Assembly (NCBI RefSeq): GCF_000017305.1 | Contig: NC_009664.2 | Location: 4,230,001 to 4,262,000, forward strand | Direction: 5' to 3' | DNA length: 32,000 bases | DNA from: Kineococcus radiotolerans SRS30216 = ATCC BAA-149 | GTDB lineage: Bacteria; Actinomycetota; Actinomycetes; Actinomycetales; Kineococcaceae | Part shown: in pieces, positions 6,625 through 30,202 of the stretch | How the letters are laid out: the number at the start of each line of letters is the position of its first letter | How positions within the stretch are numbered: position 1 is the first letter of the stretch | Translations under genes and position numbers: made by a program | Notes under the pieces: model-generated | Databases searched by the model: none | What the model was told of the DNA's origin: nothing | What the model saw: the letters and a program-made list of their open reading frames with translations, nothing else

Positions 6625-7339
6625 GTGCGGCGCGTCGTCGGTACCGCACCGCTGCGGGCAGGGCCCTCGGGGTGCGCACGACGTGAACCCGCCGCGCAGG
6701 AGGGACGGGGGAGGGGTGGGGCGTTCCTGCCGCTGGCCGAGGCCAGCGGGCTCATCGTGCCGCTGGGGCGGCAGGTGCTGACCCTGGCGTGCAGGCAGGT
6801 GGCGCTGTGGCGGGCGCAGCTGCCGGCCGCTGCGGACCTGCGCGTGGTCGTCGACGTCTCCGGCCGGCGGCTGGGCGAACCCGACACCGTCGACGTCGTC
6901 GCCGAGGCCCTGCTGATCAGCGGTCTGCTGCCGGGTGCGCTGGTGCTGGAGCTGACCGGGACGTCCCTGGCGGGGACCGGCGCGGAGGTGGACATCGCCC
7001 TGCAGCGGATCCGGGAGTTGGCGCTGGCGTTGGACGACTTCGGCACCGGTTGCGCCGGTTCCAGCTACCTGCAGCGCTTCCAGCCCGACATCGTCGAGAT
7101 CGACCGTTGCTCCGTCGCCGCGCTGGGGCGTTCCGCGCGCGACGACCTGCTGACGCACTCGTTGGTCGGGTTGGGCCTGCAGCTGGGGTGCGACGTGGTG
7201 GCCGAGGGGGTGGAGACGATCGAGCAGGTGCAGACCCGGGCGGCGCTGGGGGTGCGCAACGCGCGGGAGTACTTCTCCTCCACCCCCCCGCAGCGCGCGG
7301 GACCTGGCCGAGCAGTCGCCCGCCGCCTCGTCCTCCTGA
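6625..7339 (+). pseudogene. truncated, degenerate EAL-domain remnant with probable frameshift in a C7 run
   Basis: The track ORF 6625..7605 contains only the C-terminal two thirds or so of an EAL domain: FLPLAEASGLIVPLGRQVL...VVVDVSG...LELTGT...LDDFGTG...VEIDRCS...VVAEGVE...NAREYFSS. The EAL signature segment is absent. By eye versus the neighbour's EAL, N is replaced by D, the second E of ExTE by G, the K of KIDR by E, and GQG by ARE. After the C7 run (7283-7289), frame +2 reads RSARDLAEQSPAASSS* and stops at 7337-7339. The annotated frame instead runs 266 nt into the convergent gene. Confidence 0.6.
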
Positions 7340-7354
7340 ACCGCGTGGCCCGCG

Positions 7355-10084: not shown

Positions 10085-10088
10085 CCGG

Positions 10089-10120
10089 CCCTCCCGGGAG
10101 GGTCGAACCTCCCGGGAGGG
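10089..10120 (-). promoter_or_regulatory. perfect 13-bp stem-loop (two copies of palindrome CCTCCCGGGAGG) sequestering the Shine-Dalgarno of the GGDEF-EAL gene
   Basis: The mRNA sense reads CCCUCCCGGGAGG-UUCGAC-CCUCCCGGGAGGG-CCGG-GUG. The 3' arm contains GGGAGGG, 4 nt upstream of GTG 10084. Each half (10089-10102 and 10108-10119) is also self-complementary. Confidence 0.6.
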
Positions 10121-10357
10121 TCCGGCGGCGCGGACCGGGCGCGGAGGATGCACGTCCGTCCATCGGCGCCCGGAGCGTCCTGCTCAAGCGGTTCAGGAGT
10201 TGTTCACCCGCCGCCGGCCCCCCGCGGGCGTCACCCCGCCGGCCGCGTCGGGGGGGTGCGCACGGCCCGCCCCGGTGGCGGCGCCGGGGGCGTCGGGGAC
10301 GACACTGGGAACTCGCGGTGGCGCGGACGCCCACCGGTCGAGCGTGGAGGAGGTCCC

Positions 10358-18695: not shown

Positions 18696-20144
18696 GTGAG
18701 CTCCCCGACGCCCCCCGACGTCCCGACCTCCCCGTCCCCGGCCCGTGGTGACGCGGTCGACTCCTACGACGTGGTGGTGGTCGGCGGTGGCCCGGCCGGG
18801 GTCTCGGCCGCGGTCCGCGCCGCCGAGCTCGGCGCCCGGACGGCCCTGCTGGAGGGGTCCCGCACCGGTGGGACCTGCGTGAACACCGGCTGCGTGCCGA
18901 CGCGGGTGCTGGCCAAGACGGCCCGGCTCGTCCGCGAGGTGCGCACGGCCGCGGAGTACGGGATCGCGGTGCCGCAGCAGAGCGTGGACTGGCCCGCGAC
19001 GGTCGCCCGCGTCCGCGCCACCGTGGAACGGGTGCAGGCCGCGAAGGCGGACCCGCAGCGGCTGGCCGACCTCGGCGTCGACCTGGTGCTGGAGGGCCGC
19101 GCGCGCTTCGTCGACCCGCACGTGCTGGAGCTCGCCGCGACCGGGCGGCGGGTGCGCGGCGAGAGCGTCGTGCTGTGCGTCGGTGGGCGCTCCCGGCGGC
19201 TGCCGCTGCCCGGGGCGGAACTCGCGACGTACCCCGAGACCGTGCTGGAGCTCCCGTCCCTGCCCCGGCGCCTCGCCGTCGTGGGCGCGGGCAACACCGG
19301 CTCGCAGCTCGTGACCGTCTTCCGCGCCCTGGGCAGCGAGGTGCAGCTGCTGGACCTCGCCCCGCGGGTCCTGCCGACGGCCGACGCCGACGTCTCGCAC
19401 GCCGTGCGGCGCGCGTTCGAGGAGCAGGGCGTCCGGGTGGCGACGGGCATCGACGCGGTGCACTCCCTGCGCCGGCGCGCCGACGGGGCGATCGACCTGG
19501 CGTGGTCGCAGGGCGGCACGCGCTCCGAGGAGGCGTTCGACGCGGTCGTGATGAGCGTCGGCTGGCCCGCGGCGCTGGACGGGTTGGGCCTGGAGGCCGC
19601 CGGGATCGAGGTCACCCGCTCCGCCGTCGCGGTCGACGAGCACCTGCGCACGTCCGTTCCCCACGTGTTCGCCGCGGGCGACGCGAACGGTCAGGCGATG
19701 CTCGTCCAGGCCGCCCACGCCGAGGCGGAGGCCGCCGCCACCAACGCCGTCCTGGGCGCGACCCGCCGCACCCCCCACCTGCTGCTGCCGTCGGGGGGTT
19801 TCACGGACCCGGACTACGCGGGGGTGGGGCTCACCGAGGACGAGGCACGGGCGCGGGACCCGCACTGCCTCGTGGTGACCGTGCCGTTCACGGCGATGGA
19901 GCGCGCCATCATCGACGACCGCACGCGGGGTTTCCTCAAGCTGATCGCCGACCGGCGTCGCGACGTCCTGCTGGGCGCCCACGCCGTGGGGGAGGAGGCC
20001 GTCGAGATCGTGCAGGCCGTGACGACGGCGATGGCCGCGGGCGTCGACGTCGCCACCCTGGCCCGCGTCGAGTTCGCCTACCCCACCTACAGCGCCGTCA
20101 TCGGCGAGGCCGCCCGCCGGCTGATGCGGGCCGCCGTCGCCTGA
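18696..20144 (+). CDS. FAD-dependent pyridine nucleotide-disulfide oxidoreductase (class I, redox-active CxxxxC)
   Basis: This is part of track ORF 18279..20144, with candidate start GTG 18696. The FAD fold is YDVVVVGGGPAGVSAA, the redox disulfide is GGTCVNTGCVPTRVL, the NAD fold is LAVVGAGNTGSQL, and FAAGDANG is present. The dimerisation domain ends EFAYPTYSAVIGEAA, i.e. YPT where Lpd/GR-type enzymes have HPTxxE. Confidence 0.85.
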   Translation: MSSPTPPDVPTSPSPARGDAVDSYDVVVVGGGPAGVSAAVRAAELGARTALLEGSRTGGTCVNTGCVPTRVLAKTARLVREVRTAAEYGIAVPQQSVDWPATVARVRATVERVQAAKADPQRLADLGVDLVLEGRARFVDPHVLELAATGRRVRGESVVLCVGGRSRRLPLPGAELATYPETVLELPSLPRRLAVVGAGNTGSQLVTVFRALGSEVQLLDLAPRVLPTADADVSHAVRRAFEEQGVRVATGIDAVHSLRRRADGAIDLAWSQGGTRSEEAFDAVVMSVGWPAALDGLGLEAAGIEVTRSAVAVDEHLRTSVPHVFAAGDANGQAMLVQAAHAEAEAAATNAVLGATRRTPHLLLPSGGFTDPDYAGVGLTEDEARARDPHCLVVTVPFTAMERAIIDDRTRGFLKLIADRRRDVLLGAHAVGEEAVEIVQAVTTAMAAGVDVATLARVEFAYPTYSAVIGEAARRLMRAAVA

Positions 20145-20249
20145 CACCGCTGCCGCGGTTCCTGCCACGTCAGCGGGACGAGCGCGGTGTCGCAGCGTGC
20201 CCCCGCGGGGGTGGTGAACCCGTCGGGGCCGGCGCCCGGGGCGGAGATG

Positions 20250-20279
20250 TTGACACGGGCGGTCCCCGTCGGGCACGGT
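20250..20279 (+). promoter_or_regulatory. candidate promoter for the riboswitch-led operon
   Basis: A perfect TTGACA (20250-20255) is rare in this GC context. An 18-nt spacer precedes CACGGT (20274-20279), which is a weak -10. The predicted TSS is about 20286, just 5' of the riboswitch. The call rests on sequence pattern only. Confidence 0.3.
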
Positions 20280-20288
20280 GAGCAACGC

Positions 20289-20385
20289 AACCATCAAGAG
20301 CGGCTGAGAGATCTGGCTCCGTGACGCCGCAGCAACCCTCCGCGTGAGCGGGTGTGGGTGCTTCCGCCAGAACCGATGGAGGAAC
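20289..20385 (+). promoter_or_regulatory. S-box riboswitch aptamer (SAM-I / SAM-IV clan)
   Basis: The sequence reads AACCAUC-AAGAG-CGGC-UGAGAGA-UCUGG-CUC-CGUGA-CGCCG-CAGCAACC-CUCCGC-GUGA-GCGGGUGUGGGU-GCUUCCGCCAG-AACC-GAUGG. Conserved S-box blocks AUCAAGAG, GAGRGA...YC...GAUGA-like k-turn halves, GCAACC and GGUGCU are all present. P2a is GCGGC/GCCGC. P2b is GAG/CUC, where the consensus has GGG/CCC, which is a compensatory change. P3 is ACCCUCCGC/GCGGG(UGU)GGGU. The loop CUGG can pair with CCAG (pseudoknot). P1 is CCAUC (20291-20295) / GAUGG (20375-20379). Confidence 0.65.
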
Positions 20386-20386
20386 A

Positions 20387-20473
20387 GTGCTCAACCGTTG
20401 TGATCGTGGTTTCTTCGCTTCCCGTCGTCGCCACGTCGACCACTGCCGTTGCGGCGCAACGGCCTGCCGGTGA
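20387..20473 (+). CDS. candidate 28-codon Cys-rich upstream ORF (leader peptide)
   Basis: GGAGGA (20378-20383), which overlaps the 3' strand of riboswitch P1, is followed by ACA and then GTG 20387. The peptide is MLNRCDRGFFASRRRHVDHCRCGATACR* with TGA at 20471-20473. It has 4 Cys in 28 aa, and 5 of its 8 Arg codons are CGT, which I did not see used elsewhere in the operon. There is no homology evidence. Confidence 0.25.
   Translation: MLNRCDRGFFASRRRHVDHCRCGATACR
20445..20463 (+). terminator. perfect 8-bp GC-rich hairpin inside the uORF 3' end (possible attenuator)
   Basis: Sequence is GCCGTTGC-ggc-GCAACGGC. The 5' arm covers the Cys-Arg-Cys codons TGC CGT TGC. There is no U-tract after it, so an intrinsic-terminator role is unproven. 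Confidence 0.3.
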
Positions 20474-20887
20474 CCCGCTGACGGCTCGCTGCCCCCGGGG
20501 GTAGGTCCGGCGGAGGAGTGGTGCACCGGGGTTCCCGCCCGGTCCTCACCGCTGCTCCCGCGTCGGGTCCCTCCCTGCGGACCCGCTGCGCCGCGAACCA
20601 GGACTCCGCCTCCGGCCGAGACGGTCCACGGCGCGACGCGCCGCGTCGACGCCGGACGGGAACGACCCGGGCCGACCCCCGGTGACGGCGGGCGCGTGAG
20701 CGCGCTGGCCGCCCGAGCACCGGGCACCCCTCCGGCTGCCTCCACCCGGCTCCCTCGGCGAACGCCGATCTCCGTCCTCCCCCGAGTTCCGAGGACCCGT
20801 CCCCCGGGGCGTCCCGACTCGACCCCGTTCTCCCGCACCCCGCTTCTCCACCCCAGAACCCCGGATCACCACAGTTGGAGCCTGCCC

Positions 20888-22540
20888 ATGCTCGTCCGTC
20901 GCCGCACCACGCTCGCCGCTGCAGCCGCCACCGCCCTCGCCGGCCTCGTCACCAGCTGCTCCTCCGCGGCGAGCGGCAACGACGCTCCGTCGGGTGAGCC
21001 CAAGACCGGGGGGACCCTCACCTACCTCGAACCGCAGACGTGGACGACGTTGTACCCGCCGGCGGCCGGGTTCTACCCCAACGGCGGCATCGTCAACAAC
21101 ATCACCGACCGGCTGCTGTGGCAGAACCCCGAGACCCTGGAACTCGAACCGTGGATCGCGACGGCGTTGCCGCAGGTGAACGCCGACGCCACCGAGTACA
21201 CCTTCACCCTGCGCGACGGCGTCACCTACTCTGACGGGACTCCGCTGGACGCCGCCAACGTGCTCGCCAACATCGACCTCTTCGGCAAGGGTGACCCCGA
21301 CCGTGCCCTGACGGTCTCGGAGGCCATCAACAACTACGACCGCGGCGAGGTCCTCGACGAGCGCACCGTCAAGTTCTACTTCACCGCCCCCGCCCCCGGC
21401 TTCGCCCAAGCGGTCTCCACCATCAACTCCGGTCTGCTGTCCACCGCCAGCCTGCAGCTGGACGGCGAGGGTTTCGGCCCCGGTCACGCCACGGCGGTCA
21501 TCGGGTCGGGGCCGTTCGTGGTCGACGACGAGGAGATCGGGACCCGGGTCTCGCTGGTGGCGCGCCAGGACTACGACTGGGCCCCGCCCTCGCGGACCCG
21601 CCAGGGCCGGCCCTTCCTCGACGGCATCGACGTCGTCGTCGCGGGGGAGGACAGCGTCCGTGTCGGGACGGTGGTCGCCGGTCAGGCCGACCTCGCCCGC
21701 CAGATCGAGGCGCCGGACGAGGGGCAGTTCGAGGCCGACGGCCTCGCTCTGCTCGCCGCGGCCACCAACGGTGTCAACAACGGTTTCAGCTTCCGCTTCC
21801 GCACCCCGCAGCTGCAGGAACTGCCCGTCCGTCAGGCGATCATCGCCGGCATCGACCGCCGCGCCATCCTCGACACGTTGTTCAGCGACAGCTACGTCCT
21901 GGCGACCGGGGCGCTGGCCACCACCGCCCTCGGCTACGTCGACACCTCCGCGAGCTACCGGCACGACCCCGCCGAGGCCGCGCGGCTGCTCGATCAGGCC
22001 GGCTGGCGGGTGGGCGGTGACGGGGTCCGCGAGAAGGACGGGGTGAAGCTGGCTCTGACCTTCAACGAGGCCCTGCCCCAACCCCGCTCGAAGGAGGTCG
22101 TCACCCTCGTGCAGGAGCAGCTGGCGAAGCTCGGCGTCCAGGTCGAGCTGCACCCCGGCGACCAGGCCGCGCAGACCGCCGCCGCCCTGGACCCGCAGAC
22201 CGTGCAGGTCTACCACTCCATGGTCGGGCGAGCCGACTTCGACGTCCTGAAGTCGCAGTACTTCTCCAAGAACCGCAACACGCTGCTGAACCTGGACAAG
22301 GGCGACGGCACCCTCGGCGACGCGGAACTGGACGCGCTGCTCAACGACATCGCCTCCAAGGCCACCACCGCCGAACGGCAGGCCGCCTCGCAGGCCGCGC
22401 AGCAGCGACTGGCCGAGCAGGCCTACGTCCTGCCGCTCTTCGAGGAACCGCAGGTCTTCGGCTTCCGGTCCGACGTGCAGGGTTTCACCACCGAGTCGGT
22501 GGGGCGGCCCTCGTTCCACGCGACGTGGCTGGACCGCTGA
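20888..22540 (+). CDS. ABC transporter substrate-binding lipoprotein, family 5 (peptide/nickel/opine type)
   Basis: ATG 20888 within track ORF 20696..22540, with GGAG 8 nt upstream. The signal peptide and lipobox are MLVRRRTTLAAAAATALAGLVTSC|SS. The SBP_bac_5 pattern is KTGGTLTYLEPQ...LLWQNPETLELEPWIATALPQVNADATEYTFTLRDGVTYSDGTPLDA. Confidence 0.9.
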   Translation: MLVRRRTTLAAAAATALAGLVTSCSSAASGNDAPSGEPKTGGTLTYLEPQTWTTLYPPAAGFYPNGGIVNNITDRLLWQNPETLELEPWIATALPQVNADATEYTFTLRDGVTYSDGTPLDAANVLANIDLFGKGDPDRALTVSEAINNYDRGEVLDERTVKFYFTAPAPGFAQAVSTINSGLLSTASLQLDGEGFGPGHATAVIGSGPFVVDDEEIGTRVSLVARQDYDWAPPSRTRQGRPFLDGIDVVVAGEDSVRVGTVVAGQADLARQIEAPDEGQFEADGLALLAAATNGVNNGFSFRFRTPQLQELPVRQAIIAGIDRRAILDTLFSDSYVLATGALATTALGYVDTSASYRHDPAEAARLLDQAGWRVGGDGVREKDGVKLALTFNEALPQPRSKEVVTLVQEQLAKLGVQVELHPGDQAAQTAAALDPQTVQVYHSMVGRADFDVLKSQYFSKNRNTLLNLDKGDGTLGDAELDALLNDIASKATTAERQAASQAAQQRLAEQAYVLPLFEEPQVFGFRSDVQGFTTESVGRPSFHATWLDR

Positions 22541-22545
22541 GCGCC

Positions 22546-23481
22546 GTGACCTACGTGGCCCGGCGCGCCGGGCAGGCCGTCGTCGTCCTGGTCCTGGCCT
22601 ACGCCCTGACCTTCGTCCTGCTGGCCGCCCTGCCCGGGGACGCGGTCCTGGCCCGGTACGGCAGTCCCGAGCTGGGGCTGTCCCCGGAGCAGTTGGCCGA
22701 CATCCGCGCCGCCTACGGGGCCGACCGGCCCCTGCCGGTGCGCTTCGCGGAGTCGGCCTGGGCGTTCCTGGGCGGGGACCTGGGGTACTCGGTGCAGAGC
22801 GGCGCCGCGGTCGCGACCCTGCTCGCCGCCGCCCTGCCCTCCACCCTCGTCCTGGCCGCGCTCGGACTGGCTCTCGCCCTGCTGCTCGCGGTGACGATCG
22901 CGGTGCTCGCCACGCACGGCCGGGGCCGGTGGCTGCGCAGGCTCTTCCAGAGCCTGCCCCCGCTGTTCGTGTCCCTGCCCGTCTTCTGGATCGGGATCCT
23001 GCTCATCCAGGTCCTCTCCTTCCGCCTGGGGCTGGTGCCCGTCATCGGTGCGGGGCCGGTGCAGGCGCTGATCCTGCCCGTGGCGACGATCGCGGTACCC
23101 ATCGCGGCGCCGCTGGCGCAGGTCCTGATGCGCAGCATCGACGACGTGGAGCAGATGCCGTTCGTCTCCGTGGTGCGCGCCCGCGGCGCCAGCCCGTCGT
23201 GGCTGCTGCGGCACGACGTCAGCCGCAACGCCGTCCTGCCGGCGCTGACGATGGCCGGTCTGCTGTTCGGGGAACTGGTCGGGGGCGCGGTGGTCACCGA
23301 GTCCGTCTTCGGGCGCGCCGGGATCGGGCAGCTCACCGCCCAGGCCGTCGCCAACCGCGACACCCCCGTGCTCCTGGCCGTGGTGGTCCTCTCCACGGTG
23401 GCCTACGTGGTCATCAACCTCCTCGTCGACCTGCTCTACCCCGTGCTGGACGCGCGCCTGCGCAGAGGAGGAGCCCGATGA
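22546..23481 (+). CDS. ABC transporter permease (DppB/OppB-like)
   Basis: GTG 22546 lies 5 nt after the SBP stop. It begins VTYVARRAGQAVVVLVLAYALTFVLL and has six TM segments and an EAA-like loop (VVRARGASPSWLLRHDVSRNAVLPALT). Confidence 0.85.
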   Translation: MTYVARRAGQAVVVLVLAYALTFVLLAALPGDAVLARYGSPELGLSPEQLADIRAAYGADRPLPVRFAESAWAFLGGDLGYSVQSGAAVATLLAAALPSTLVLAALGLALALLLAVTIAVLATHGRGRWLRRLFQSLPPLFVSLPVFWIGILLIQVLSFRLGLVPVIGAGPVQALILPVATIAVPIAAPLAQVLMRSIDDVEQMPFVSVVRARGASPSWLLRHDVSRNAVLPALTMAGLLFGELVGGAVVTESVFGRAGIGQLTAQAVANRDTPVLLAVVVLSTVAYVVINLLVDLLYPVLDARLRRGGAR

Positions 23482-24413
23482 GCGCTCACACCCGGGTGCC
23501 CGGTGCCCACCCCGGCAGCGACCCGACCCGGGTTCCCGCCGCGGGCCCGGGCGGCGGCGCCACCAGCGGCCCGGACGGCGGCCCGGACCGCGGCTCCGTC
23601 GGTTCCCCCCCGTTGCGGCGGGCACGGGCCCGACTGGGGATCGTCGTCCCGGCCCTGATCGTCCTGCTCGTGCTGCTGTGGGCGCTGCTGCCCGGGCTGT
23701 TCGCCCCCGGTAGCCCCACCGCCTCGGTCGCACCGTCGCTGCAGGCCCCCAGCGGGGAGCACTGGTTCGGCACCGACGCCACCGGGCGCGACGTGTTCAC
23801 CCGCGTCGTCCACGGCGCCTCGCACTCCATCCTCGGCGCCGTCGTCGCGGTGCTCGTCGGGTTCGTCGTCGGCACCCTGCTCGGGGTCCTGGCCGGATCG
23901 CTGGGCGGTCCCCTCGACGACGTCCTCATGCGCCTGGTCGACGTCCTGCTCGCCATCCCCGGGTTGCTGCTCTCCCTCAGCGTCGTCATCCTCCTCGGCT
24001 TCGGCACCACCAACGCCGCCATCGCCGTCGGCGTCACCTCCATCGCCGTCTTCGCCCGCCTCGCCCGCGCCGAGGTCGTGCGCGTGCGGGTCAGCGAGTA
24101 CGTCGAAGCCGCCTACGGCTCCGGGGGCACCTTCCTCGCCGTCCTGCGCCGCCACGTCCTGCCGAACTCCCTCACCCCCGTCGTGGCCCTGGCCGCGCTG
24201 CAGTTCGGTTCCGCGATCCTGCAGATCTCCACCCTCGGCTTCCTCGGCTACGGCGCTCCGCCGCCGACGCCGGAGTGGGGGCTGCTCATCGCCGAGGGAC
24301 GCAACTACGTCGCCACCGCCTGGTGGCTCACCGTCTTGCCCGGTGTCGTGGTCGTCGCCGTCGTCCTCGCCACCAACCGCCTCAGTCGATCGATCCGGAG
24401 CGTGCCGGCATGA
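23478..24413 (+). CDS. ABC transporter permease (DppC/OppC-like)
   Basis: The ATG at 23478 overlaps the previous stop as ATGA. The N-terminus is Pro/Gly-rich for about 55 aa. Then come HWFGTDATGRDVFTRVVHGA, TM segments and the EAA loop (EAAYGSGGTFLAVLRRHVLPN). Confidence 0.85.
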   Translation: MSAHTRVPGAHPGSDPTRVPAAGPGGGATSGPDGGPDRGSVGSPPLRRARARLGIVVPALIVLLVLLWALLPGLFAPGSPTASVAPSLQAPSGEHWFGTDATGRDVFTRVVHGASHSILGAVVAVLVGFVVGTLLGVLAGSLGGPLDDVLMRLVDVLLAIPGLLLSLSVVILLGFGTTNAAIAVGVTSIAVFARLARAEVVRVRVSEYVEAAYGSGGTFLAVLRRHVLPNSLTPVVALAALQFGSAILQISTLGFLGYGAPPPTPEWGLLIAEGRNYVATAWWLTVLPGVVVVAVVLATNRLSRSIRSVPA

Positions 24414-26137
24414 GCGCCCTGCTGAGCGTGCAGGACCTGCGCGTGGACTACACCACCTCGCGCGGCCCGGTCCGCGCCGTGGACGGGGTGTCCTTCACCG
24501 TCCACCCCGGGCAGACCACCGCTCTCGTCGGGGAATCCGGTTCGGGCAAGTCCAGCCTCGCCCAAGCCGTCATCGGTCTGCTCCCCGGCAACGGTTCCGT
24601 CACCGGTGGGCGCATCGACCTGCGCGGCAGCGACCTGCTGGGCCTGACCGAGCGCGAGTGGCGCGCCGTGCGGGGACGCCGCATCGGGCTCGTCCCGCAG
24701 GACCCGGGGAACTCCCTGAACCCCGTCGTCACCGTCGGGGCCAGCGTGGAGGCGAGCCTGCGCATCCACGGCTCGCGGGAGCGACGCGCGAACCGGGCCC
24801 GGGTGCTGGACCTGCTCGAACGCGTCGGCATCGACGACCCCGCCCGCCGGGCCCGGCAGTACCCGCACGAGTTGTCCGGGGGGATGCGTCAACGCGTCCT
24901 GATCGCCGCCGCCATCGCCCTGCAGCCCGAGCTGATCATCGCCGACGAGCCCACCAGCGCTCTCGACGTCACCGTCCAGGCCCGCGTCCTGGACCTGCTC
25001 GACGACCTGCGCGTCGGTACCGGCGCGGGGATGCTGCTCATCACCCACGACCTCGCCGTGGCCGCCGAACGCTCCGACGCGCTCGTCGTCCTGCGCCGGG
25101 GGACGGTCCAGGAGGCGGGCCCGACCGTGGAGGTGCTGGCCCACCCCCGAGCGGCCTACACCCGTGCCCTCCTCGCCGACGCGCCCTCGCTCGCCCGGGT
25201 CGTCGACCGGGCTCCCGTCCTGTCGGTGGCCGGTGCGGCCGGCCGTGCTGGTGACGGCGTTGCCGGCGGTGGGGCGGGGGGTCCGGCCGAGCGGCCCCTG
25301 GTGCAGGTCGAGGGCCTGCGGCAGGAGTTCCGCCGCCGCGGAGCCGGCCCCCTCCTCGCCGTCGACGGCGTCTCCTTCACCGTCGCCCGCGGCACCACGC
25401 ACGCCATCGTGGGGGAGTCCGGGTCGGGGAAGACCACCACCGGGCGGGCGCTGGCCGGTTTCGGCCGGCCCACCGCAGGCTCCGTCCGCGTCGGTGACAC
25501 CGACGTCACCGCTCTGGGGTCGCGCCCGACGTCGAGAGCGGCTCGCGCCTTCCGCCGCACGACGCAGCTGGTGCACCAGAACCCCTACGCCTCCCTGGAC
25601 CCGAGGCTCAGCGTCGGAGCGATCATCGCCGAGCCGCTGCTGAACTTCGGTCTCGGGAACGCCGACGAGCGCCGGGCGAAGGTCGCCCACCAGCTCGACG
25701 TCGTCGGGTTGCCCGCCGAGGTCGCGACCCGGCGAGCGCGGGAACTGTCGGGCGGGCAGCGCCAACGGGTGGCCATCGCCCGCGCCCTCGTCCTCGAACC
25801 CGACCTCGTCGTCTTCGACGAGGCGGTGTCCGCCCTCGACGTGAGCGTCCAGGCCCAGGTGCTGCGCCTGCTGGCCCGGCTGCAGGCCGACCTCGGCCTG
25901 ACCTACGTCTTCATCTCCCACGACCTCGCCGTCGTCCGCCAGATCAGCGACACCGTCTCGGTGCTGCACCGCGGCCGCCAGGTCGAGTCCGGGCGCGTGC
26001 AGGACGTCTTCGGCGATCCCCGGCAGGCGTACACGCGTGAGCTGCTCGCCGCCGTCCCGGGGACGGCGCGTCCCCGCCCCGGCCGCACCCCGGTCCCGCC
26101 AGCCCGCCACGACCCGCACGAGGAGGCGCGCTCGTGA
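24410..26137 (+). CDS. fused double ATP-binding-cassette ATPase (DppD-DppF type)
   Basis: ATGA overlap at 24410. There are two complete cassettes. Walker A is GESGSGKSS and GESGSGKTT. The signature is LSGGMRQR and LSGGQRQR. Walker B is LIIADEPTSALD and LVVFDEAVSALD. Confidence 0.9.
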   Translation: MSALLSVQDLRVDYTTSRGPVRAVDGVSFTVHPGQTTALVGESGSGKSSLAQAVIGLLPGNGSVTGGRIDLRGSDLLGLTEREWRAVRGRRIGLVPQDPGNSLNPVVTVGASVEASLRIHGSRERRANRARVLDLLERVGIDDPARRARQYPHELSGGMRQRVLIAAAIALQPELIIADEPTSALDVTVQARVLDLLDDLRVGTGAGMLLITHDLAVAAERSDALVVLRRGTVQEAGPTVEVLAHPRAAYTRALLADAPSLARVVDRAPVLSVAGAAGRAGDGVAGGGAGGPAERPLVQVEGLRQEFRRRGAGPLLAVDGVSFTVARGTTHAIVGESGSGKTTTGRALAGFGRPTAGSVRVGDTDVTALGSRPTSRAARAFRRTTQLVHQNPYASLDPRLSVGAIIAEPLLNFGLGNADERRAKVAHQLDVVGLPAEVATRRARELSGGQRQRVAIARALVLEPDLVVFDEAVSALDVSVQAQVLRLLARLQADLGLTYVFISHDLAVVRQISDTVSVLHRGRQVESGRVQDVFGDPRQAYTRELLAAVPGTARPRPGRTPVPPARHDPHEEARS

Positions 26138-27351
26138 CCACCCCGCCGGCGACCCCACCGACGTCCCCCGTCTCGACGACGTCCCCCGACCCGGCCACGG
26201 CGAGCGCGACGACGGGGAGCGGACCGCGGCTGGGGTTCTTCACCCGGCTCCTCGAGGACGCACCCGCCCCCGACCGGTACCGCTTCGCCCTGGAACAGGT
26301 CCAGCACGCCGAACGCGTCGGTTTCACCTCCGCCTGGGTCGCCCAGCACCACTTCGGGGAGCACGAGGGCGGTCTGCCCTCCCCGTTCGTCCTGCTCGCC
26401 GCGGCCGCGGAGCGCACCACGCGGATCGGCCTGGGCACCGGCGTCGTCACCCTGCCCATCGACGACCCCGTCCGGGCCGCCGAGGACGCCGCCGTCCTCG
26501 ACGCCCTCAGCGGCGGACGCGTCCAGCTCGGTGTCGCCTCCGGGGGGACCGACTCCTCCTTCGCGCCCTTCGCCCGCGAGGTCATCGACCGCCGCGAACT
26601 CTTCGAGGACCACCTCGCCGTCTTCCTCGAAACCCTGGAGGGACACGGCATCCGCGGCAGCGCCGCGCGCCTCTACCCCGCCGCGGGCACCCTCGCCGGA
26701 CGCGTGTGGCAGGGCACCTTCTCCGCCGCCGGGGGAGCGCGAGCCGGAGCTCGCGGTCACGGCGTGATGCTGTCGCGGACCCAGCCGCGCCCGGCGGCGA
26801 ACCCCCGCGCAGCCCTGCACGAGGTGCAGCTGCCCATCGTCGCGGCCTACCGCGACGCCCTGCCGGTTCGAGCGCCGTACCGGGTCCTCGCCTCACGCAC
26901 CGCCCTCGTCGTCGACGAGGACGACCGCGGCCGCGCTCTGGACCTCGCCCGGGACGGGCTGCGCCGTCTGGCGAGCACGTTCATCGGTGCCGACGCCGGC
27001 GACCTCGGCATCGACGACCTCATCGCCCTCACCGACACCCACGTCGGCACCCCCGAGGAGGTCACCGCCTCCCTGGCCGCCGACCACACCCTCCGCCTCG
27101 CCACGGACGTCACCTTCCAGGTCCACTCGATCGCCGCCACCCACGAACTCACCCTGCGCAGCCTCGAACTGCTCGCCACCGAGGTCGCCCCCCGGCTGGG
27201 GCTGGCCACCGGCGCAGCCGCTTCCACCGCCCTGCACCGGGCGCACCGGACCGACCGGGCGAACCGGGCCCGGGCGGGCCTGCACGACCACCTCGCCACC
27301 GGTGAGCACCGCGTCGACGCCCTCGCCCCCACCCCCGGAGGAAACGCATGA
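26134..27351 (+). CDS. LLM-class (luciferase-like) flavin-dependent monooxygenase
   Basis: GTGA overlap with the ATPase stop. After a 30-aa Pro/Thr-rich N-terminus comes LGFFTRLLE...ALEQVQHAERVGFTSAWVAQHHFGEHEGGLPSPFVLLAAAAERTTRIGLGTGVVTLP..DPVRAAEDAAVLDALSGGRVQLGV, which is typical of the LLM TIM-barrel. Confidence 0.85.
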   Translation: MTTPPATPPTSPVSTTSPDPATASATTGSGPRLGFFTRLLEDAPAPDRYRFALEQVQHAERVGFTSAWVAQHHFGEHEGGLPSPFVLLAAAAERTTRIGLGTGVVTLPIDDPVRAAEDAAVLDALSGGRVQLGVASGGTDSSFAPFAREVIDRRELFEDHLAVFLETLEGHGIRGSAARLYPAAGTLAGRVWQGTFSAAGGARAGARGHGVMLSRTQPRPAANPRAALHEVQLPIVAAYRDALPVRAPYRVLASRTALVVDEDDRGRALDLARDGLRRLASTFIGADAGDLGIDDLIALTDTHVGTPEEVTASLAADHTLRLATDVTFQVHSIAATHELTLRSLELLATEVAPRLGLATGAAASTALHRAHRTDRANRARAGLHDHLATGEHRVDALAPTPGGNA

Positions 27352-28766
27352 GCACCACCACGCAGACCACTCCCCGAACCACCCCCGATCCCGAGACCGA
27401 GCGCGCCCCCGCCGCCGAGGGGTTCTCCGGGGAACCCGCCGGGGAAGCTGTCGTCGACGTCATCGACCTGCTCGCCGGTACCACCCCCGACAGCCCGCTC
27501 TCCCGCACCCGCGCCCAACGGCCCCGGGCCCGCGAGAACGCCCAACGCAGCTTCGAGGCCCTCCTGGAACCCGCCGACCCCGGCTCGTTCAGCCACACCG
27601 AGCGCTACGCCGTCGCCACCTTCACCGCCCACCTGCACCGCTTCGAGCACGCCGCCCGCTTCTACGCCGACGTCCTCTCCGACACCGCTCCCCACCTCCT
27701 CGACCCGATCCACCACGCCGCCCGCGACGCCGCCTCCACCGGACCCGCCGGCACCTACCGGGAACCCGGCCTCAGCGCCGAGAGCGTCCCCACCACCGCC
27801 TGGACGCCGTCCCCGGCGCTCGCGGCGCAGCTGGGTCCGCGGCTGAGTGCGGCCCTCACCCACACCCACCTGCTGGTCTTCCGCCCGCGCGAAGCTGGCC
27901 CCGCGGCCCTGCGGGACCTGCTCCGCGCGGGGTGGAGCGCGGACCACGTGGTCAGCCTCTCCCAGCTCGTGGCCTTCCTGACCTTCCAGCTGCGCACCGC
28001 GTGGGGTCTCGCCGTCCTGCGTTCCCCCCACCACCACGAGGCGGGACGGGGGGTGAGCGGAACGACCCGCCACGAACCGACCGGATCGGGCGAGCCGGCG
28101 GGCCCGCAGCCCGGTGCGCACGACCACGGACCCCAGACGCACCTCGACCTCGTCACCGAGCACCCCGACCTGCACCGCCCCGAGAGGTTCACCCAGCAGA
28201 GCCTGGGGTGGGTGCCTTGGCTGGAACCCGTCGCCGAGGACGACCTCACCGACGCCCAACGGGAAGCGCTCGTCGAACCGGCCCGCGCGAAGATGCCCTA
28301 CTTCCGGCTGCTGGCCCGGGACCCCGACGCGCTGCGCGCCCGCACCCTCACCGACCTGGACATCTTCTTCAACACCACCGGCGGGATCGGCCGCGCCGAG
28401 CGCGAACTCGCCGCCGCAGCCACCTCCCGCCGCAACGGCTGCGTCTTCTGCGCCCACGTCCACGCCGCCGCCGCCACCCGCGAATCCGGACGCGGTCAGG
28501 ACGTGCAGCGCCTCCTCGACGACGGCCCGTCCGCCGACCTGGGCGACGAGCGGTGGAACGCGATCGTGGCCGCCTCCGTGCACCTGGCCGACACCCCCCT
28601 CGCCTTCAACGGCGACGACGTCGACCGGCTGCGCTCCGCGGGCCTGGACGACACCGCGATCGTCGACGTCGTCAACGGCGCGGCGTTCTTCAACTGGGCG
28701 AACCGGCTGATGCTCTCCCTCGGCGAACCCGAGGTACCCGCCTCCCGCCGGCGCGAACCGGCATGA
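27348..28766 (+). CDS. fused double CMD/AhpD-like protein (N-terminal CMD domain + C-terminal peroxidase-related CxxC domain)
   Basis: ATGA overlap at 27348. The N-terminal half reads ...SFSHTERYAVATFTAHLHRFEHAARFYADVL...LSQLVAFLTFQLR. A Gly/Pro/His-rich linker spans about aa 225-265. The C-terminal half reads FRLLARDPDALRARTLTDLDIFFNTTGGIGRAERELAAAATSRRNGCVFCAHVHAAAA...IVDVVNGAAFFNWANRLMLSLG, which is the carboxymuconolactone-decarboxylase/AhpD fold with CxxC. Confidence 0.75.
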   Translation: MSTTTQTTPRTTPDPETERAPAAEGFSGEPAGEAVVDVIDLLAGTTPDSPLSRTRAQRPRARENAQRSFEALLEPADPGSFSHTERYAVATFTAHLHRFEHAARFYADVLSDTAPHLLDPIHHAARDAASTGPAGTYREPGLSAESVPTTAWTPSPALAAQLGPRLSAALTHTHLLVFRPREAGPAALRDLLRAGWSADHVVSLSQLVAFLTFQLRTAWGLAVLRSPHHHEAGRGVSGTTRHEPTGSGEPAGPQPGAHDHGPQTHLDLVTEHPDLHRPERFTQQSLGWVPWLEPVAEDDLTDAQREALVEPARAKMPYFRLLARDPDALRARTLTDLDIFFNTTGGIGRAERELAAAATSRRNGCVFCAHVHAAAATRESGRGQDVQRLLDDGPSADLGDERWNAIVAASVHLADTPLAFNGDDVDRLRSAGLDDTAIVDVVNGAAFFNWANRLMLSLGEPEVPASRRREPA

Positions 28767-29452
28767 GCATCCCCACCCTGCTCGACCACGTCGTCATCGC
28801 CGGCCCCGACCTGGGCGAGCTCGTCGACTGGTTCGCCGCCGCCACCGGCGTCACCGCGACCCCCGGCGGGGTGCACCCCGGCACCGGCACCGCCAACGCC
28901 CTCGTCGCGTTGACCGTCGACGGTGAGCGTCGCCCGCACTACGTCGAGCTCATCGCCCCCGACCCCCGCGCCGCGGTGGAGGCGACCGGGTTCGGCATCC
29001 CCGGGCTGACCGGACCGCGCCTCGTCACCTACGCGATCCACCCCGCCGACCTCGACGCCGTCGTCGCCGGTTCCCGCGAGCGCGGCTACGACCCCGGCCC
29101 CGTCGAAACCCTCTCCCGCCGCACGCCGGACGGGACGCTGCTGCGGTGGCGGCTGACCCACTCCCGCCCGGACCGTCCCGACGTGCCCTTCCTCATCGAC
29201 TGGGGCGGCACCCCGCAACCGGGGTTCACCGTCGACGCGACCCTGGAACTGCTCGACCTCACCCACGTCGGTACCGGCGCCGCGACGAACCGGGCGCTGA
29301 CGGCGCTCGGGCTGCCTCCCGGCGCGGTGGCTGCGTCCGCCGCTCCGGCCGTCGACGCCGCCACCGGCGAGGCTCCCGGTGGTGCGGCGGCGGGCTACGC
29401 GCTGCGGGTGCGAGGCACCGACGGGTCGACCGTGGTCATCGGAGCGACCTGA
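28763..29452 (+). CDS. VOC (glyoxalase-like) family protein
   Basis: ATGA overlap at 28763, in the frame of track ORF 26987..29452. MSIPTLLDHVVIAGPDLGELVDWFAAATGVTATPGGVHPGTGTANALVAL...VELIAPDP...VPFLIDWG resembles glyoxalase-like domain proteins. Confidence 0.7.
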   Translation: MSIPTLLDHVVIAGPDLGELVDWFAAATGVTATPGGVHPGTGTANALVALTVDGERRPHYVELIAPDPRAAVEATGFGIPGLTGPRLVTYAIHPADLDAVVAGSRERGYDPGPVETLSRRTPDGTLLRWRLTHSRPDRPDVPFLIDWGGTPQPGFTVDATLELLDLTHVGTGAATNRALTALGLPPGAVAASAAPAVDAATGEAPGGAAAGYALRVRGTDGSTVVIGAT

Positions 29453-29578: not shown

Positions 29579-30202
29579 TCAGGACAGGTCCAGGGTCGTC
29601 ACCGACGTCAGGTGGGCGCGCACGTCGGCGACCATGTCGATCCGCTTGCCGGAGAGCAGCCACTGCACCTGCAGACCGTCCATGAGCGCGACCAGCCCCC
29701 GGGCGCAGCGTTCCGGGTCGACGCCCTCCCGCAGCCGCCCCCGGGCGCGCAACTCCGCGAAGACCTGCGCGGTGCGCCCGACGATGCCCGCGTAGCGCTC
29801 CTGGAAGTAGGCGTGGGCGGGGTGGTCGGGCGACGTGGCCTCCGCCGACAGGGTGCAGTGCAGCTCGACGAGTCCGGGGGTCGCCTGGTTGCTCCCCAGC
29901 AGCTGCAGCAGCGTCCGCAGGTGCGACTCCGGTCCCGCCTCGTCCACGTCGAACAGCGCCCGGTCGCGTTCCCCGCGGGCCTGCAGCACCGCGGCGAGCA
30001 GCACGTCCTTGGTCGGGAAGTGGTACGTCAGCCCCTGCTGGGAGATGCCGATGCGGTCGGCGATCTCGCGCAGCGAGGCGTTGCGGTACCCGGAGGCCGC
30101 GAAGACCGTCAGCGCCGCGTCCAGGATCTCCCGCCGCCGCAGCGCCGACTTGGCGTACTCGCCCCGCCCGGCGCGGGAGCGGCTGGTGTCGGTGGTCGGC
30201 AC
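29579..30202 (-). CDS. TetR/AcrR family transcriptional regulator
   Basis: GTG 30202 is preceded by GGGAAGGTGG. The HTH is RRREILDAALTVFAASGYRNASLREIADRIGISQQGLTYHFPTKDVLL. The track ORF extends a further 149 codons upstream over non-protein-like sequence. Confidence 0.85.
   Translation of the reverse strand: MPTTDTSRSRAGRGEYAKSALRRREILDAALTVFAASGYRNASLREIADRIGISQQGLTYHFPTKDVLLAAVLQARGERDRALFDVDEAGPESHLRTLLQLLGSNQATPGLVELHCTLSAEATSPDHPAHAYFQERYAGIVGRTAQVFAELRARGRLREGVDPERCARGLVALMDGLQVQWLLSGKRIDMVADVRAHLTSVTTLDLS

Follow-up and report, generated by a model that had tools for sequence, protein, structure and literature searches.

Among the closest described counterparts of the leader studied here are the Mbox (pe20) and B12 (ppe2) riboswitches of Mycobacterium tuberculosis. 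The Mbox controls the translation of a conserved uORF and Rho-dependent termination has been shown for it (PMC12810186), a conserved uORF is likewise controlled by the B12 riboswitches (PMC11260477), and Rho was found to be dominant among the conditional terminators of this organism (10.1101/2022.06.01.494293). The Kineococcus leader resembles these systems in its actinobacterial translational platform, in its predicted direct target, a small uORF, and in the secondary effect that would fall on the downstream genes. It differs in belonging to another ligand class, in the 154–414 nt that separate the uORF from the operon, and in being known from sequence alone. A literature search found no description of a uORF under a SAM riboswitch in bacteria.

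Within the SAM clan, SAM-IV is set apart by a second pseudoknot (PK-2), in which the P3 loop pairs with the 3' tail, by a P5 hairpin located 3' to P1 and by a 4-nt turn that replaces the k-turn; in SAM-I/IV, P2 is undivided and PK-1 is missing (PMC6890682). Natural RF00162 members with little or no P4 have been reported in Actinomycetota and are able to function (PMC12714719).

Actinobacteria also use small cysteine-rich ORFs as regulators. The polycysteine sORFs were defined as leaderless ORFs that open the transcript at its 5' end and carry two or more Cys codons in a row, and those of the Ms5788A type were experimentally shown to be cysteine-responsive attenuators (Canestrari et al., 10.1101/834739). 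Cys leader peptides of actinobacteria have been proposed to act by Rho/tna-like attenuation (PMC1262725), and a Cys/Met-rich leader peptide precedes metNIQ in Streptomyces lividans (PMC8079986).

Our study concerns a 32-kb stretch of Kineococcus radiotolerans DNA (the window), to which all coordinates refer, on the plus strand unless stated otherwise. The riboswitch found in it belongs to a known class, and the design of its leader is modestly novel.

The SAM-I aptamer

The sole Rfam cmscan match in the window was RF00162 (SAM-I) at 20288–20382 (+), with a score of 56.1 bits (E 1.4e-10) against a gathering score of 44.4 bits and with model positions 1–108 covered. A sequence-only reading had placed an S-box element at 20289–20385 with all core blocks in order and had proposed the covariance search; the element was confirmed, every named motif was found, and the family returned was SAM-I. 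Orthologous matches were obtained in K. terrestris (53.0 bits) and Kineococcus sp. DK001 (48.8 bits), and aptamer identity across four Kineococcus species was 90–95 %, compared to ~85 % for the binding-protein DNA and 31–52 % for the flanking spacer. The aptamer is a genuine SAM-clan (S-box) element, of a short form that had been described from actinobacteria before, and it probably binds SAM.

P1 is formed by the 5' strand CAACCAUC (20288–20295, core CCAUC 20291–20295) and the 3' strand GAUGGAGG (20375–20382), with six of the eight pairs present in the window, five contiguous and one distal and no more, and seven of eight in K. terrestris. The tandem A-U/U-A pairs of P1, which have a role in ligand contact in SAM-I crystal structures, are present as A20293–U20377 and U20294–A20376. 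The AUCAAGAG block (20293–20300), read from the sequence and the model alignment, leads into P2a (GCGGC 20300–20304 / GCCGC 20326–20330) and the k-turn halves (UGA 20305–20307 / CGUGAC 20320–20325), an asymmetric internal loop with GA on both strands that matches, at the level of sequence, the consensus gGA / uaUGAA. P2b (GAG 20308–20310 / CUC 20317–20319) is marked as compensatory to the GGG/CCC consensus by the model alignment, as had been claimed. The pseudoknot strand CUGG in the P2 loop (20313–20316) is a perfect complement of CCAG in J3/4 (20367–20370), giving four Watson–Crick pairs; as these are invariant in all five related sequences (four Kineococcus and one from Rhodococcus antarcticus), the pseudoknot has no covariation evidence, and covariation within the aptamer is almost nil. 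GCAACC (20332–20337), the loop GUGA that caps P3 (20344–20347) and GGUGCU (20357–20362) complete the core, and every upper-case consensus position of the core blocks (AUC-AGAG in P1/J1-2, GCAACC and GGUGC in P3) was matched. At the site next to J3/4 where P4 is expected, the covariance-model alignment has 1 nt in place of 17 model positions and a lone G20366–C20374 pair, so that P4, described earlier as absent or tiny, is reduced to one base pair.

The architecture had been likened to SAM-IV or SAM-I/IV, and this comparison did not hold. The aptamer does share its clan and ligand-binding core with SAM-IV, a typically actinobacterial class that likewise has no P4. However, the k-turn and PK-1 are present, P3 ends in a tetraloop, and Rfam clan competition retained SAM-I. 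The P3 loop is a 4-nt GNRA loop in Kineococcus (GUGA, GCGA or GAGA) and UUCG in Rhodococcus; with a GNRA tetraloop, PK-2 and P5 of SAM-IV are unable to form. SAM-IV (RF00634) was rejected on this tetraloop, on the 6-nt k-turn strand and on the Shine-Dalgarno (SD) sequence and ORF that lie 3' of P1, and SAM-I/IV (RF01725) was ruled out by a P2 split by the k-turn and by the presence of PK-1. The core blocks, P1–P3, the k-turn and the pseudoknot between the P2 loop and J3/4 are those of the Actinomycetota SAM-I subgroup with a very short P4 or none. No essential difference from this subgroup was seen in the aptamer, the platform here being an SD within P1 and no terminator hairpin. The missing P4 is compatible with SAM-I membership, because natural Actinomycetota RF00162 members lack it (PMC12714719). 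On its sequence, the aptamer is one of the Actinomycetota SAM-I elements in which P4 is very short or missing.

A putative promoter lies at 20250–20279, with a −35 element TTGACA (20250–20255), an 18-nt spacer and a −10-like CACGGT (20274–20279). It was not called by the consensus promoter scan; TTGACAC is invariant in the four Kineococcus species and the −10 element retains CAnnGT. This arrangement would imply a transcription start just before P1.

The leader ORF and the spacer

The SD sequence GGAGGA (20378–20383) lies inside or abuts the 3' strand of P1, and the CCGAUGGAGGAAC block is invariant in the four Kineococcus species and in the riboswitch on the R. antarcticus plasmid. The overlap between P1 and this SD can be read directly from the sequence and fits a translational OFF switch, as had been proposed. 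The occluded SD had, however, been assigned to the ABC operon, whereas it serves a conserved ORF of 28 codons plus stop at 20387–20473, (M)LNRCDRGFFASRRRHVDHCRCGATACR, which starts 5 nt past the 3' strand of P1. To take the closest annotated gene as the direct target of the riboswitch would be a mistake, as the regulated RBS belongs to this unannotated ORF. The gene callers did not report it and called a spurious ORF of 222 aa on the other strand.

The length of the leader ORF and the positions of its start (GTG/TTG) and stop (TGA/TAG) are kept in the four Kineococcus species, in a region with 28–33 % nucleotide divergence across the species lineages (only 3 % between DK001 and DK002), and the alignment of the leaders collapses right after the stop codon. 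In the core, codons 9–27, nine columns have synonymous changes only and five have an amino-acid change; variable sites fall 5/2/10 on the three codon positions, a distribution that is only suggestive (chi-square p 0.056). The peptide core SRRRH[VI]D[HY]CR.GAT.C is unchanged or changed only conservatively across the four species. These species are closely related and represent three independent lineages. Beyond the open frame, the amino-acid sequence itself appears to be constrained, and the ORF is predicted to be translated. An alternative frame starting at ATG 20376 (MEEQC...) was rejected, as its second codon position is the most variable, it has no SD and its ATG lies inside P1, and a second SD-led ORF at 20518–20685 was not conserved.

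In the orthologous operons, proteins and metagenomes searched, the leader ORF did not turn up outside Kineococcus. Our sample comprised 80 binding-protein loci, one genome per species. The leader was absent from all 77 non-Kineococcus orthologous loci fetched, as well as from one Nonomuraea locus and five proteobacterial cassettes, and a strict aptamer motif scan and a scan for the mini-ORF peptide motif were positive only in the three Kineococcus loci among the 80. A looser motif scan gave 17 further matches, all at other positions or on the other strand, which were judged to be chance. Rfam returned no match for the loci of Microlunatus, Saccharopolyspora, Microbacterium, Leucobacter, Clavibacter, Brachybacterium and Nonomuraea or for the five proteobacterial cassettes. 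No recurring Cys-rich sORF was seen upstream of the other orthologues, whose upstream neighbours are variable, with no regulator in common. A protein search with a 41-aa in-frame query found no homologue of the leader peptide, and a metagenome scan with the back-translated core ASRRRH[VI]DxCR gave five matches, all of them out-of-frame chance occurrences inside longer genes.

The leader ORF is followed by an untranslated spacer (20474–20887) that is variable, C-rich and unstructured and is a candidate Rho-loading region. Across the four species it spans 154–414 nt (414 in the window), with 46–52 % C and a C/G ratio of 1.44–1.95. Its strongest C-over-G tract (20696–20880) sits just upstream of the binding-protein ATG and reaches C/G ratios of 1.65–2.67 in 78-nt segments starting at 20696–20852, the 95th percentile across the whole window being 1.79; the final 80 nt before this ATG have ratios of 1.86–2.5 in all four species. 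Directly after the leader ORF stop, the RNA of the window is not C-rich (C/G 1.0). Folding z-scores of −1.04, −0.17 and +1.53 in three species show the spacer to be no more structured than shuffled sequences, and it has no conserved block except the region of the binding-protein SD. No intrinsic terminator or sigma-70 consensus promoter was found in 19900–21100, and other Rfam families gave only chance-level matches in the leader at E ≤10. A hairpin at 20447–20461 (a partial SECIS_4 match) was not conserved in the other species. The coding strand of the operon, too, often shows a bias of C over G, which is therefore not specific evidence of a Rho site. Since the leader ORF ends 154–414 nt upstream of the operon, ordinary leader translation alone would not shield the strongest C-rich tract. 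Rho may nevertheless be involved in shutting off the operon.

The operon and its possible link to sulfur

The first gene of the operon (20888–22540) encodes a 550-aa TIGR04028-family ABC substrate-binding lipoprotein (NCBIfam 864 bits; Pfam SBP_bac_5). Its conserved start, ATGCTCGTCCGTC, at ATG 20888, lies 505 nt past the aptamer and is marked by a lipoprotein signal peptide; its reading frame could not start before 20696. It has its own SD, GGAG (20877–20880), 7 nt before the ATG, within a GGAGCC kept in the four species, and is therefore not directly occluded by the riboswitch. Two ABC permeases (22546–23481 and 23478–24413; Pfam BPD_transp_1), for which the gene calls were taken from fetched locus L086 and shifted by 17347, are followed by a fused double ABC ATPase of 575 aa (24410–26137; Pfam ABC_tran twice, oligo_HPY), a TIGR04027 putative FMN-dependent luciferase-like monooxygenase (26134–27351; 508.6 bits, NCBIfam cut-off 412.9) and a fused protein with CMD (TIGR04029) and alkylhydroperoxidase (TIGR04030) domains (27348–28766; NCBIfam 258.8 and 291.1 bits). 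The last gene, known from a gene call and Pfam PF13468, encodes a Glyoxalase_3/VOC-family protein (28763–29452), and a convergent TetR gene (29579–30202, minus strand) lies beyond the operon end. The importer and monooxygenase identified by Pfam and NCBIfam agree with the earlier description of a peptide-type ABC and monooxygenase operon. In all four Kineococcus species, riboswitch, leader ORF and operon follow one another in this order on one strand, and the leader and the seven genes are probably co-transcribed. The TIGR04027–04030 cassette is an uncharacterised 'hypothetical equivalog' by NCBI type and is widespread in Microbacteriaceae and proteobacterial megaplasmids; our literature search found no publication on it.

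The sequence-only reading had regarded this operon type as unfamiliar among SAM-riboswitch targets. It proved less exotic than that, as SAM-I also precedes LLM-monooxygenase operons on plasmids of R. antarcticus and Deinococcus gobiensis. On the R. antarcticus plasmid (NZ_CP110616.1), a P4-less SAM-I element of 59 bits (L096 6999–7086) lies upstream of an LLM-class monooxygenase gene. It shares 80 % aptamer identity with the window, the same block of P1 3' strand and SD, with an ORF start within 8 nt of that block, and the same pseudoknot. It differs in its distal P3, a shorter stem with a UUCG loop, in having an 81-codon truncated transporter-like frame behind the SD in place of the 28-codon peptide, and in its LLM protein, which belongs to TIGR03860 (NtaA/DmoA) and not to TIGR04027. 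The SAM-I element on plasmid P1 of D. gobiensis (L097 6999–7183, 45.4 bits) lies upstream of an ssu-like operon and resembles the Kineococcus case in standing ~200 nt before the first gene and in preceding an LLM flavin monooxygenase and an ABC importer. However, its P4 is present, its P3 has an 86-nt insertion, and its importer is of the aliphatic-sulfonate type and not of the peptide/nickel type.

This occurrence of SAM-I before LLM-monooxygenase operons elsewhere suggests sulfur scavenging; no publication on SAM riboswitches with sulfonate genes was found in the literature search. TIGR04027 cassettes have a CysB-family regulator and a sulfurtransferase as neighbours in Variovorax, a MetQ-family binding protein in A. 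vitis and a methionyl aminopeptidase in Erwinia, although the sulfur link that rests on such neighbourhoods must be read with their variation among genomes in mind. Most likely, the operon would serve the salvage of sulfur or methionine, by import and oxidative processing of a peptide or an organosulfur compound.

Regulation through the leader ORF

We lean, with modest confidence, towards a SAM-I riboswitch that gates the leader ORF, with the operon following by Rho-type polarity. As in the Mbox and B12 systems, the aptamer covers, at the level of sequence, the initiation region of a conserved uORF, with the SD (20378–20383) in the P1 3' strand (20375–20382). Transcription would start just upstream of P1. 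At high SAM, P1 would be closed and the SD sequestered in GAUGGAGG, so that the leader ORF would not be translated; the nascent spacer, C-rich and unstructured, would be free of ribosomes, and Rho or an equivalent polarity would stop transcription upstream of the binding-protein gene or within its first part. At low SAM, P1 would open, ribosomes would load directly behind RNA polymerase, and transcription would read through into the seven-gene operon (importer, FMN monooxygenase, CMD/AhpD-like protein and VOC protein).

A tentative alternative, which we consider possible but would not expect, gives the leader two inputs. The riboswitch would veto ribosome entry, and the 28-codon ORF, as a relative of the actinobacterial Cys-rich sORFs, would encode a leader peptide that senses cysteine; ribosomes stalled at C20, C22 and C27 (C27 being the penultimate codon) would block Rho loading by the stop codon, in a tnaC-like manner, and the operon would be on only when SAM and charged tRNA-Cys were both low. 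The conserved peptide core and its apparent constraint fit this proposal, as do the precedents of the Ms5788A-type attenuators, of Rho/tna-like attenuation and of the S. lividans metNIQ leader. Like the mycobacterial polycysteine sORFs (NF042933/NF042934/NF042936), the Kineococcus ORF is short and Arg-rich, has C-terminal Cys codons and lies upstream of a probably sulfur-related operon. The best natural score on the NF042934 'putative leader peptide' HMM was that of the DK001/DK002 peptide (15.6 bits, E 0.0093, with 0/10 shuffled leader peptides matching), which is below the cut-off of 27 bits, and the window and K. terrestris peptides had no match. A designed probe peptide with RRRHVDLCRVSSALC reached 34 bits and also matched NF042933, the 'Ms5788A family Cys-rich leader peptide'. 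These matches point to an NF042934 consensus that shares RRRHVD-x-CR and the 7-residue Cys–Cys spacing with the Kineococcus peptide, although a designed probe shows the preference of the HMM, not homology. No publication on NF042934 was found in the literature search. The cysteines are laid out as C-R-C...C with none adjacent, four in three sequences and two in K. terrestris, and the ORF is SD-led, ~100 nt into the transcript and behind a riboswitch, unlike the leaderless sORFs. In the Ms5788A case, moreover, the stalled ribosome frees a nearby SD, whereas the next gene in Kineococcus is hundreds of nucleotides away, and the RNA that a ribosome stalled near the stop would have to guard is not C-rich in the window. 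If true, this would be the first riboswitch found to gate an amino-acid-sensing leader peptide, and it would point for the first time to a function, sulfur amino-acid salvage, of the widespread TIGR04027–04030 cassette.

Readings that give the ORF less to do, or the operon no part, are less probable still. It is unlikely that the mini-ORF is a tolerated remnant of a once-regulated gene and that SAM-dependent folding alone sets Rho access or RNA stability. The 81-codon ORF of R. antarcticus resembles the truncated N-terminus of an MFS/MHS transporter (GSVGTTIEWYDFYGSAAALVF) upstream of an LLM gene, so that remnant ORFs behind P4-less SAM-I elements do exist, the leader ORF is confined to Kineococcus in our searches, and short ORFs easily stay open at 74 % GC. 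However, a remnant would hardly be expected to keep its length and stop, or its start through a GTG/TTG switch, at the divergence seen, and the excess of synonymous-only columns and the collapse of the alignment at the stop also count against it. We hold it to be very unlikely that the sole target of the riboswitch is a functional small protein, basic and rich in Cys and His, with the ABC/LLM operon SAM-independent and served by its own promoter in the spacer. The constrained peptide, the long spacer of the window and the operon's own SD would suit this reading, and a homologue of the Mbox-controlled uORF that occurs outside a riboswitch context suggests a function of its own (PMC12810186). 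Yet the spacer has neither a promoter-like site nor a terminator and is conserved only at the binding-protein SD, the order and strand of the three elements do not vary, and the searches returned no homologue of the peptide. A direct translational OFF switch on the first gene of the operon, which the strong SD overlapped by P1 had seemed to favour, is scarcely credible and is contradicted by the sequence, as the ORF behind that SD stops after 28 codons and the binding-protein gene starts far downstream with its own GGAG and signal peptide.

In summary, gating of the leader ORF by SAM-I, as we favour it, would extend to the SAM class the design in which a riboswitch acts on a uORF and, by polarity, on an operon, shown so far for the Mbox and B12 riboswitches of M. 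tuberculosis. Apart from this riboswitch, no regulatory clue to the TIGR04027/04028/04029/04030 cassette was found; taken with the SAM-I elements before other LLM-monooxygenase operons, one of which has a sulfonate ABC importer, it points to a role in organosulfur or methionine salvage.

A P4-less SAM-I aptamer

Scanning the window against Rfam 15 revealed one match above the curated threshold in 32 kb, to RF00162 (SAM-I, S-box) at 20288-20382 on the forward strand, which scored 56.1 bits (gathering score 44.4, E 1.4e-10) and covered the model end to end; a local rescan agreed. The sequence-only reading had placed an S-box riboswitch at nearly identical coordinates (20289-20385) and had proposed such a covariance-model scan, and each core block it named was located in the sequence or model alignment. 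P1 is formed by CAACCAUC (20288-95) pairing with GAUGGAGG (20375-82), and the core block AUCAAGAG lies at 20293-20300. The element also carries P2a (GCGGC/GCCGC), the k-turn strands UGA (20305-07) and CGUGAC (20320-25), P2b (GAG/CUC, scored by the model as compensatory relative to GGG/CCC), a pseudoknot between CUGG (20313-16) and CCAG (20367-70), GCAACC (20332-37), a P3 capped by GUGA, and GGUGCU (20357-62). P4, previously described as absent or tiny, is represented by 1 nt in place of 17 model positions, leaving a single G-C pair. In four Kineococcus species, P3 ends in a tetraloop (GUGA, GCGA or GAGA). In Kineococcus sp. DK002 and DK001, a U replaces G at the P2a 3'-strand position equivalent to window 20326, giving a C-U mismatch adjoining the k-turn for which there is no compensating change; the model score is correspondingly lower, at 48.8 bits.

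A SAM-IV or SAM-I/IV architecture had been suggested for this element, but Rfam clan competition retained SAM-I over the remaining clan members. In SAM-IV the P3 loop must form a second pseudoknot with the tail that follows a 3' P5 hairpin, and a 4-nt turn takes the place of the k-turn, while in SAM-I/IV P2 is undivided and PK-1, the P2-loop/J3-4 pseudoknot, is missing (PMC6890682). The Kineococcus aptamer instead has a k-turn, PK-1 and a P3 tetraloop, and the region 3' of its P1 is a ribosome-binding site, and both assignments were rejected as their defining features are absent. The RF00162 alignment, as analysed in 2025, includes an Actinomycetota group with very short or no P4 (PMC12714719) and, according to work cited therein, P4-less SAM-I aptamers can function, with lower affinity. 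The P4-less form is already known, and the riboswitch call, while correct, is ordinary: class and subgroup are both known, and the Rfam default threshold is enough to find it.

The leader mini-ORF and the spacer

The overlap of the P1 3' strand with a Shine-Dalgarno sequence stands, as GGAGGA (20378-83) lies within or abutting this strand and is followed after 3 nt by GTG 20387. However, this Shine-Dalgarno serves a mini-ORF of 28 codons on the forward strand (GTG 20387 to TGA 20471-73, encoding (M)LNRCDRGFFASRRRHVDHCRCGATACR), beginning 5 nt past the aptamer, and not the ABC/monooxygenase operon on which the switch had been thought to act directly. The first operon gene, encoding the binding protein, starts 505 nt past the aptamer. 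Because its frame is closed before 20696 and its conserved start, ATG 20888 (MLVRRRTT..., a lipoprotein signal), has its own GGAG at 20877-80, this gene, as judged from the sequence, cannot be the direct riboswitch target.

The mini-ORF layout is common to the three other Kineococcus genomes retrieved, with equal length and with the positions of the GTG/TTG start and TGA/TAG stop kept, and the alignment falls apart directly past the stop. Between-species identity was 90-95% for the aptamer, ~85% for the binding-protein DNA, 67-72% for the mini-ORF and 31-52% for the spacer. Within the core of the mini-ORF (codons 9-27), nine codon columns were synonymous-only and five amino-acid-changing, two of the latter being V/I and H/Y. 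Variable sites per codon position numbered 5/2/10 (p about 0.06, from three independent lineages only), a pattern that is suggestive of coding constraint. An overlapping frame from ATG 20376 was rejected, since the second codon position would vary most, and it is without a Shine-Dalgarno.

The spacer, which runs from the mini-ORF stop to the ATG of the binding-protein gene, is 414 nt long in the window; its counterparts in the other species measure 217, 264 and 154 nt. Spacer composition is 46-52% C with a C/G ratio of 1.44-1.95. In the window, C/G reached 1.65-2.67 in 78-nt windows starting at 20696-20852 (window-wide median 1.0, 95th percentile 1.79), and the final 80 nt upstream of the ATG had a ratio of 1.86-2.5 in all four species. 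Folding was not better than that of shuffled sequence (z-scores -1.04, -0.17 and +1.53), and neither an intrinsic terminator nor a consensus promoter was found in the spacer. In these respects the spacer looks like a Rho-loading region, although the operon coding strand also has more C than G. Public contigs of identical sequence carry an automated call of a 222-aa ORF, lacking any Pfam match, on the reverse strand (20170-20838), antisense to riboswitch, mini-ORF and spacer; it is almost certainly a high-GC artefact masking the true leader, as the spacer has non-triplet indels between species. Within the spacer, a second GGAGGA-nnn-GTG starts an ORF of 55 codons (GTG 20518, within 20508-20685, forward strand), and neither this ORF nor its Shine-Dalgarno is conserved in the other three Kineococcus species.

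The operon and the distribution of its leader

Pfam, NCBIfam and gene calls on identical Logan contigs bore out a peptide-type ABC/monooxygenase operon downstream. On the forward strand of this ~74% G+C window, a TIGR04028-family binding lipoprotein (20888-22540) is followed by two permeases, a fused double ATPase, a TIGR04027 'putative FMN-dependent luciferase-like monooxygenase' (LLM; 26134-27351), a fused CMD (TIGR04029) and alkylhydroperoxidase-domain (TIGR04030) protein (27348-28766) and a Glyoxalase_3/VOC protein (28763-29452); a TetR gene on the opposite strand converges on the operon. The nearest relatives are Kineococcus species (binding protein 84% identical). TIGR04027, TIGR04028, TIGR04029 and TIGR04030 are typed by NCBI as hypothetical equivalogs, denoting a conserved cassette of uncharacterised function, and our literature search found no paper on it. 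Across the proteobacterial cassettes compared (L090-L094), the CMD and alkylhydroperoxidase domains form one polypeptide in Erwinia and Pantoea, as in Kineococcus, whereas A. vitis, Paracoccus and Variovorax encode them in separate neighbouring genes. The accessory gene that closes the cassette also differs, encoding a VOC protein, a 2OG oxygenase or an amidohydrolase. Elsewhere in the window, c-di-GMP signalling genes encode a NIT-HAMP-GGDEF-EAL protein (7355-10153, reverse strand) and an EAL-domain ORF (6625-7605); these and an ECF-type sigma factor (3383-4162, reverse strand) are unrelated to the leader.

Whether orthologous operons share the leader had been raised as a check, and we saw it only in Kineococcus. 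None of the 77 binding-protein orthologue loci fetched from outside Kineococcus (Microbacterium, Leucobacter, Brachybacterium, Clavibacter, Microlunatus, Saccharopolyspora and others) carried the aptamer or the mini-ORF, and neither did a Nonomuraea cassette or five proteobacterial megaplasmid cassettes; it follows that, across these loci, the leader is a Kineococcus-specific acquisition. Two of the records merit comment. A 4-kb contig labelled Stenotrophomonas maltophilia P13 (L037) encodes a binding protein that shares 72% identity with the query and ranks among Microbacterium orthologues, which suggests a contaminated Stenotrophomonas assembly, and Nonomuraea gerenzanensis 'plasmid I' (NZ_LT559118.1), an 11.85-Mb record typed as plasmid with 10 annotated features, is evidently a chromosome.

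When plasmids were searched by BLAST with the leader, a homologous P4-less SAM-I (59 bits) turned up on a Rhodococcus antarcticus plasmid (NZ_CP110616.1, L096), with a CCGAUGGAGGAAC block identical to that of Kineococcus and a UUCG P3 loop. It is followed by an 81-codon ORF (7096-7341), whose MFS/MHS-like N-terminal motif GSVGTTIEWYDFYGSAAALVF diverges and then stops, and by an NtaA/DmoA-family (TIGR03860) LLM monooxygenase (7383-8708); the ORF looks like a decayed or truncated transporter gene. On Deinococcus gobiensis plasmid P1 (L097, 6999-7392 region), a SAM-I lies upstream of an LLM oxidoreductase and an aliphatic-sulfonate ABC importer, its score just over threshold (45.4 bits versus 44.4) because P3 carries an 86-nt insertion. 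Between this SAM-I and its operon, a Shine-Dalgarno-led 11-codon ORF (MRPHATRRCRP, ATG ~7222) has an RRCR motif, which may be chance. In other genomes, genes neighbouring the TIGR04027 cassette include those for a CysB-family regulator plus a sulfurtransferase (Variovorax), for a MetQ-family binding protein (A. vitis) and for methionyl aminopeptidase (Erwinia). These neighbourhoods, together with SAM-I preceding other LLM operons, make a sulfur or methionine-salvage role for the operon plausible on grounds of genomic context.

Probable coupling of the leader to the operon

With P1 overlapping the Shine-Dalgarno, the operon ribosome-binding site distant and independent, and no hairpin terminator present, polarity-based coupling of leader to operon is likely. 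SAM would close P1 and block translation of the leader ORF, and Rho would then terminate on the untranslated, C-rich leader upstream of the operon; at low SAM, ribosomes would load behind the polymerase and transcription would continue into the operon. The closest experimentally supported designs are from M. tuberculosis, where the Mbox controls a conserved uORF via a translational platform and Rho (PMC12810186) and the B12/ppe2 switch is comparable (PMC11260477); Rho predominates among conditional terminators in this organism (10.1101/2022.06.01.494293).

The main rival is a true two-signal leader sensing SAM plus Cys-tRNA, in which ribosomes stalled at the C-terminal Cys codons would play a part. 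A weak point of the simple polarity reading is that ordinary translation of 28 codons would leave a C-rich tract 150-400 nt further downstream unprotected, which favours stalling. Polycysteine leader sORFs are experimentally shown cysteine-responsive attenuators in Mycolicibacterium smegmatis (10.1101/834739), Rho/tna-like attenuation has been proposed for actinobacterial Cys leader peptides (PMC1262725), and S. lividans has a Cys/Met-rich leader peptide upstream of metNIQ (PMC8079986). The Kineococcus peptide shares with the polycysteine sORFs an RRRH[VI]D-x-CR core and a 7-residue Cys-Cys spacing, yet it falls short of the formal definition of that family, as it scores below the HMM cut-off, has no adjacent Cys codons and is not leaderless. 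The DK001/DK002 peptide matched NCBIfam NF042934 'putative leader peptide (cis_reg_atten)' weakly (15.6 bits, cut-off 27, E 0.0093), while neither of the other two Kineococcus peptides nor any of ten shuffled peptides matched. A probe peptide of our own design with RRRHVDLCRVSSALC scored 34 bits on NF042934, showing the preference of the HMM; NF042936 and NF042933 ('Ms5788A family Cys-rich leader peptide') matched it too, and these models describe the polycysteine sORFs of M. smegmatis. The likeness to the Cys leader family is a lead, not membership. We consider the two-signal leader unlikely.

Polarity-based coupling remains our preferred reading. The new elements in this otherwise ordinary riboswitch are the conserved leader mini-ORF as its apparent direct target, the likely coupling of that leader to the operon by polarity, and the TIGR04027-04030 operon family as a putative SAM-regulated target.
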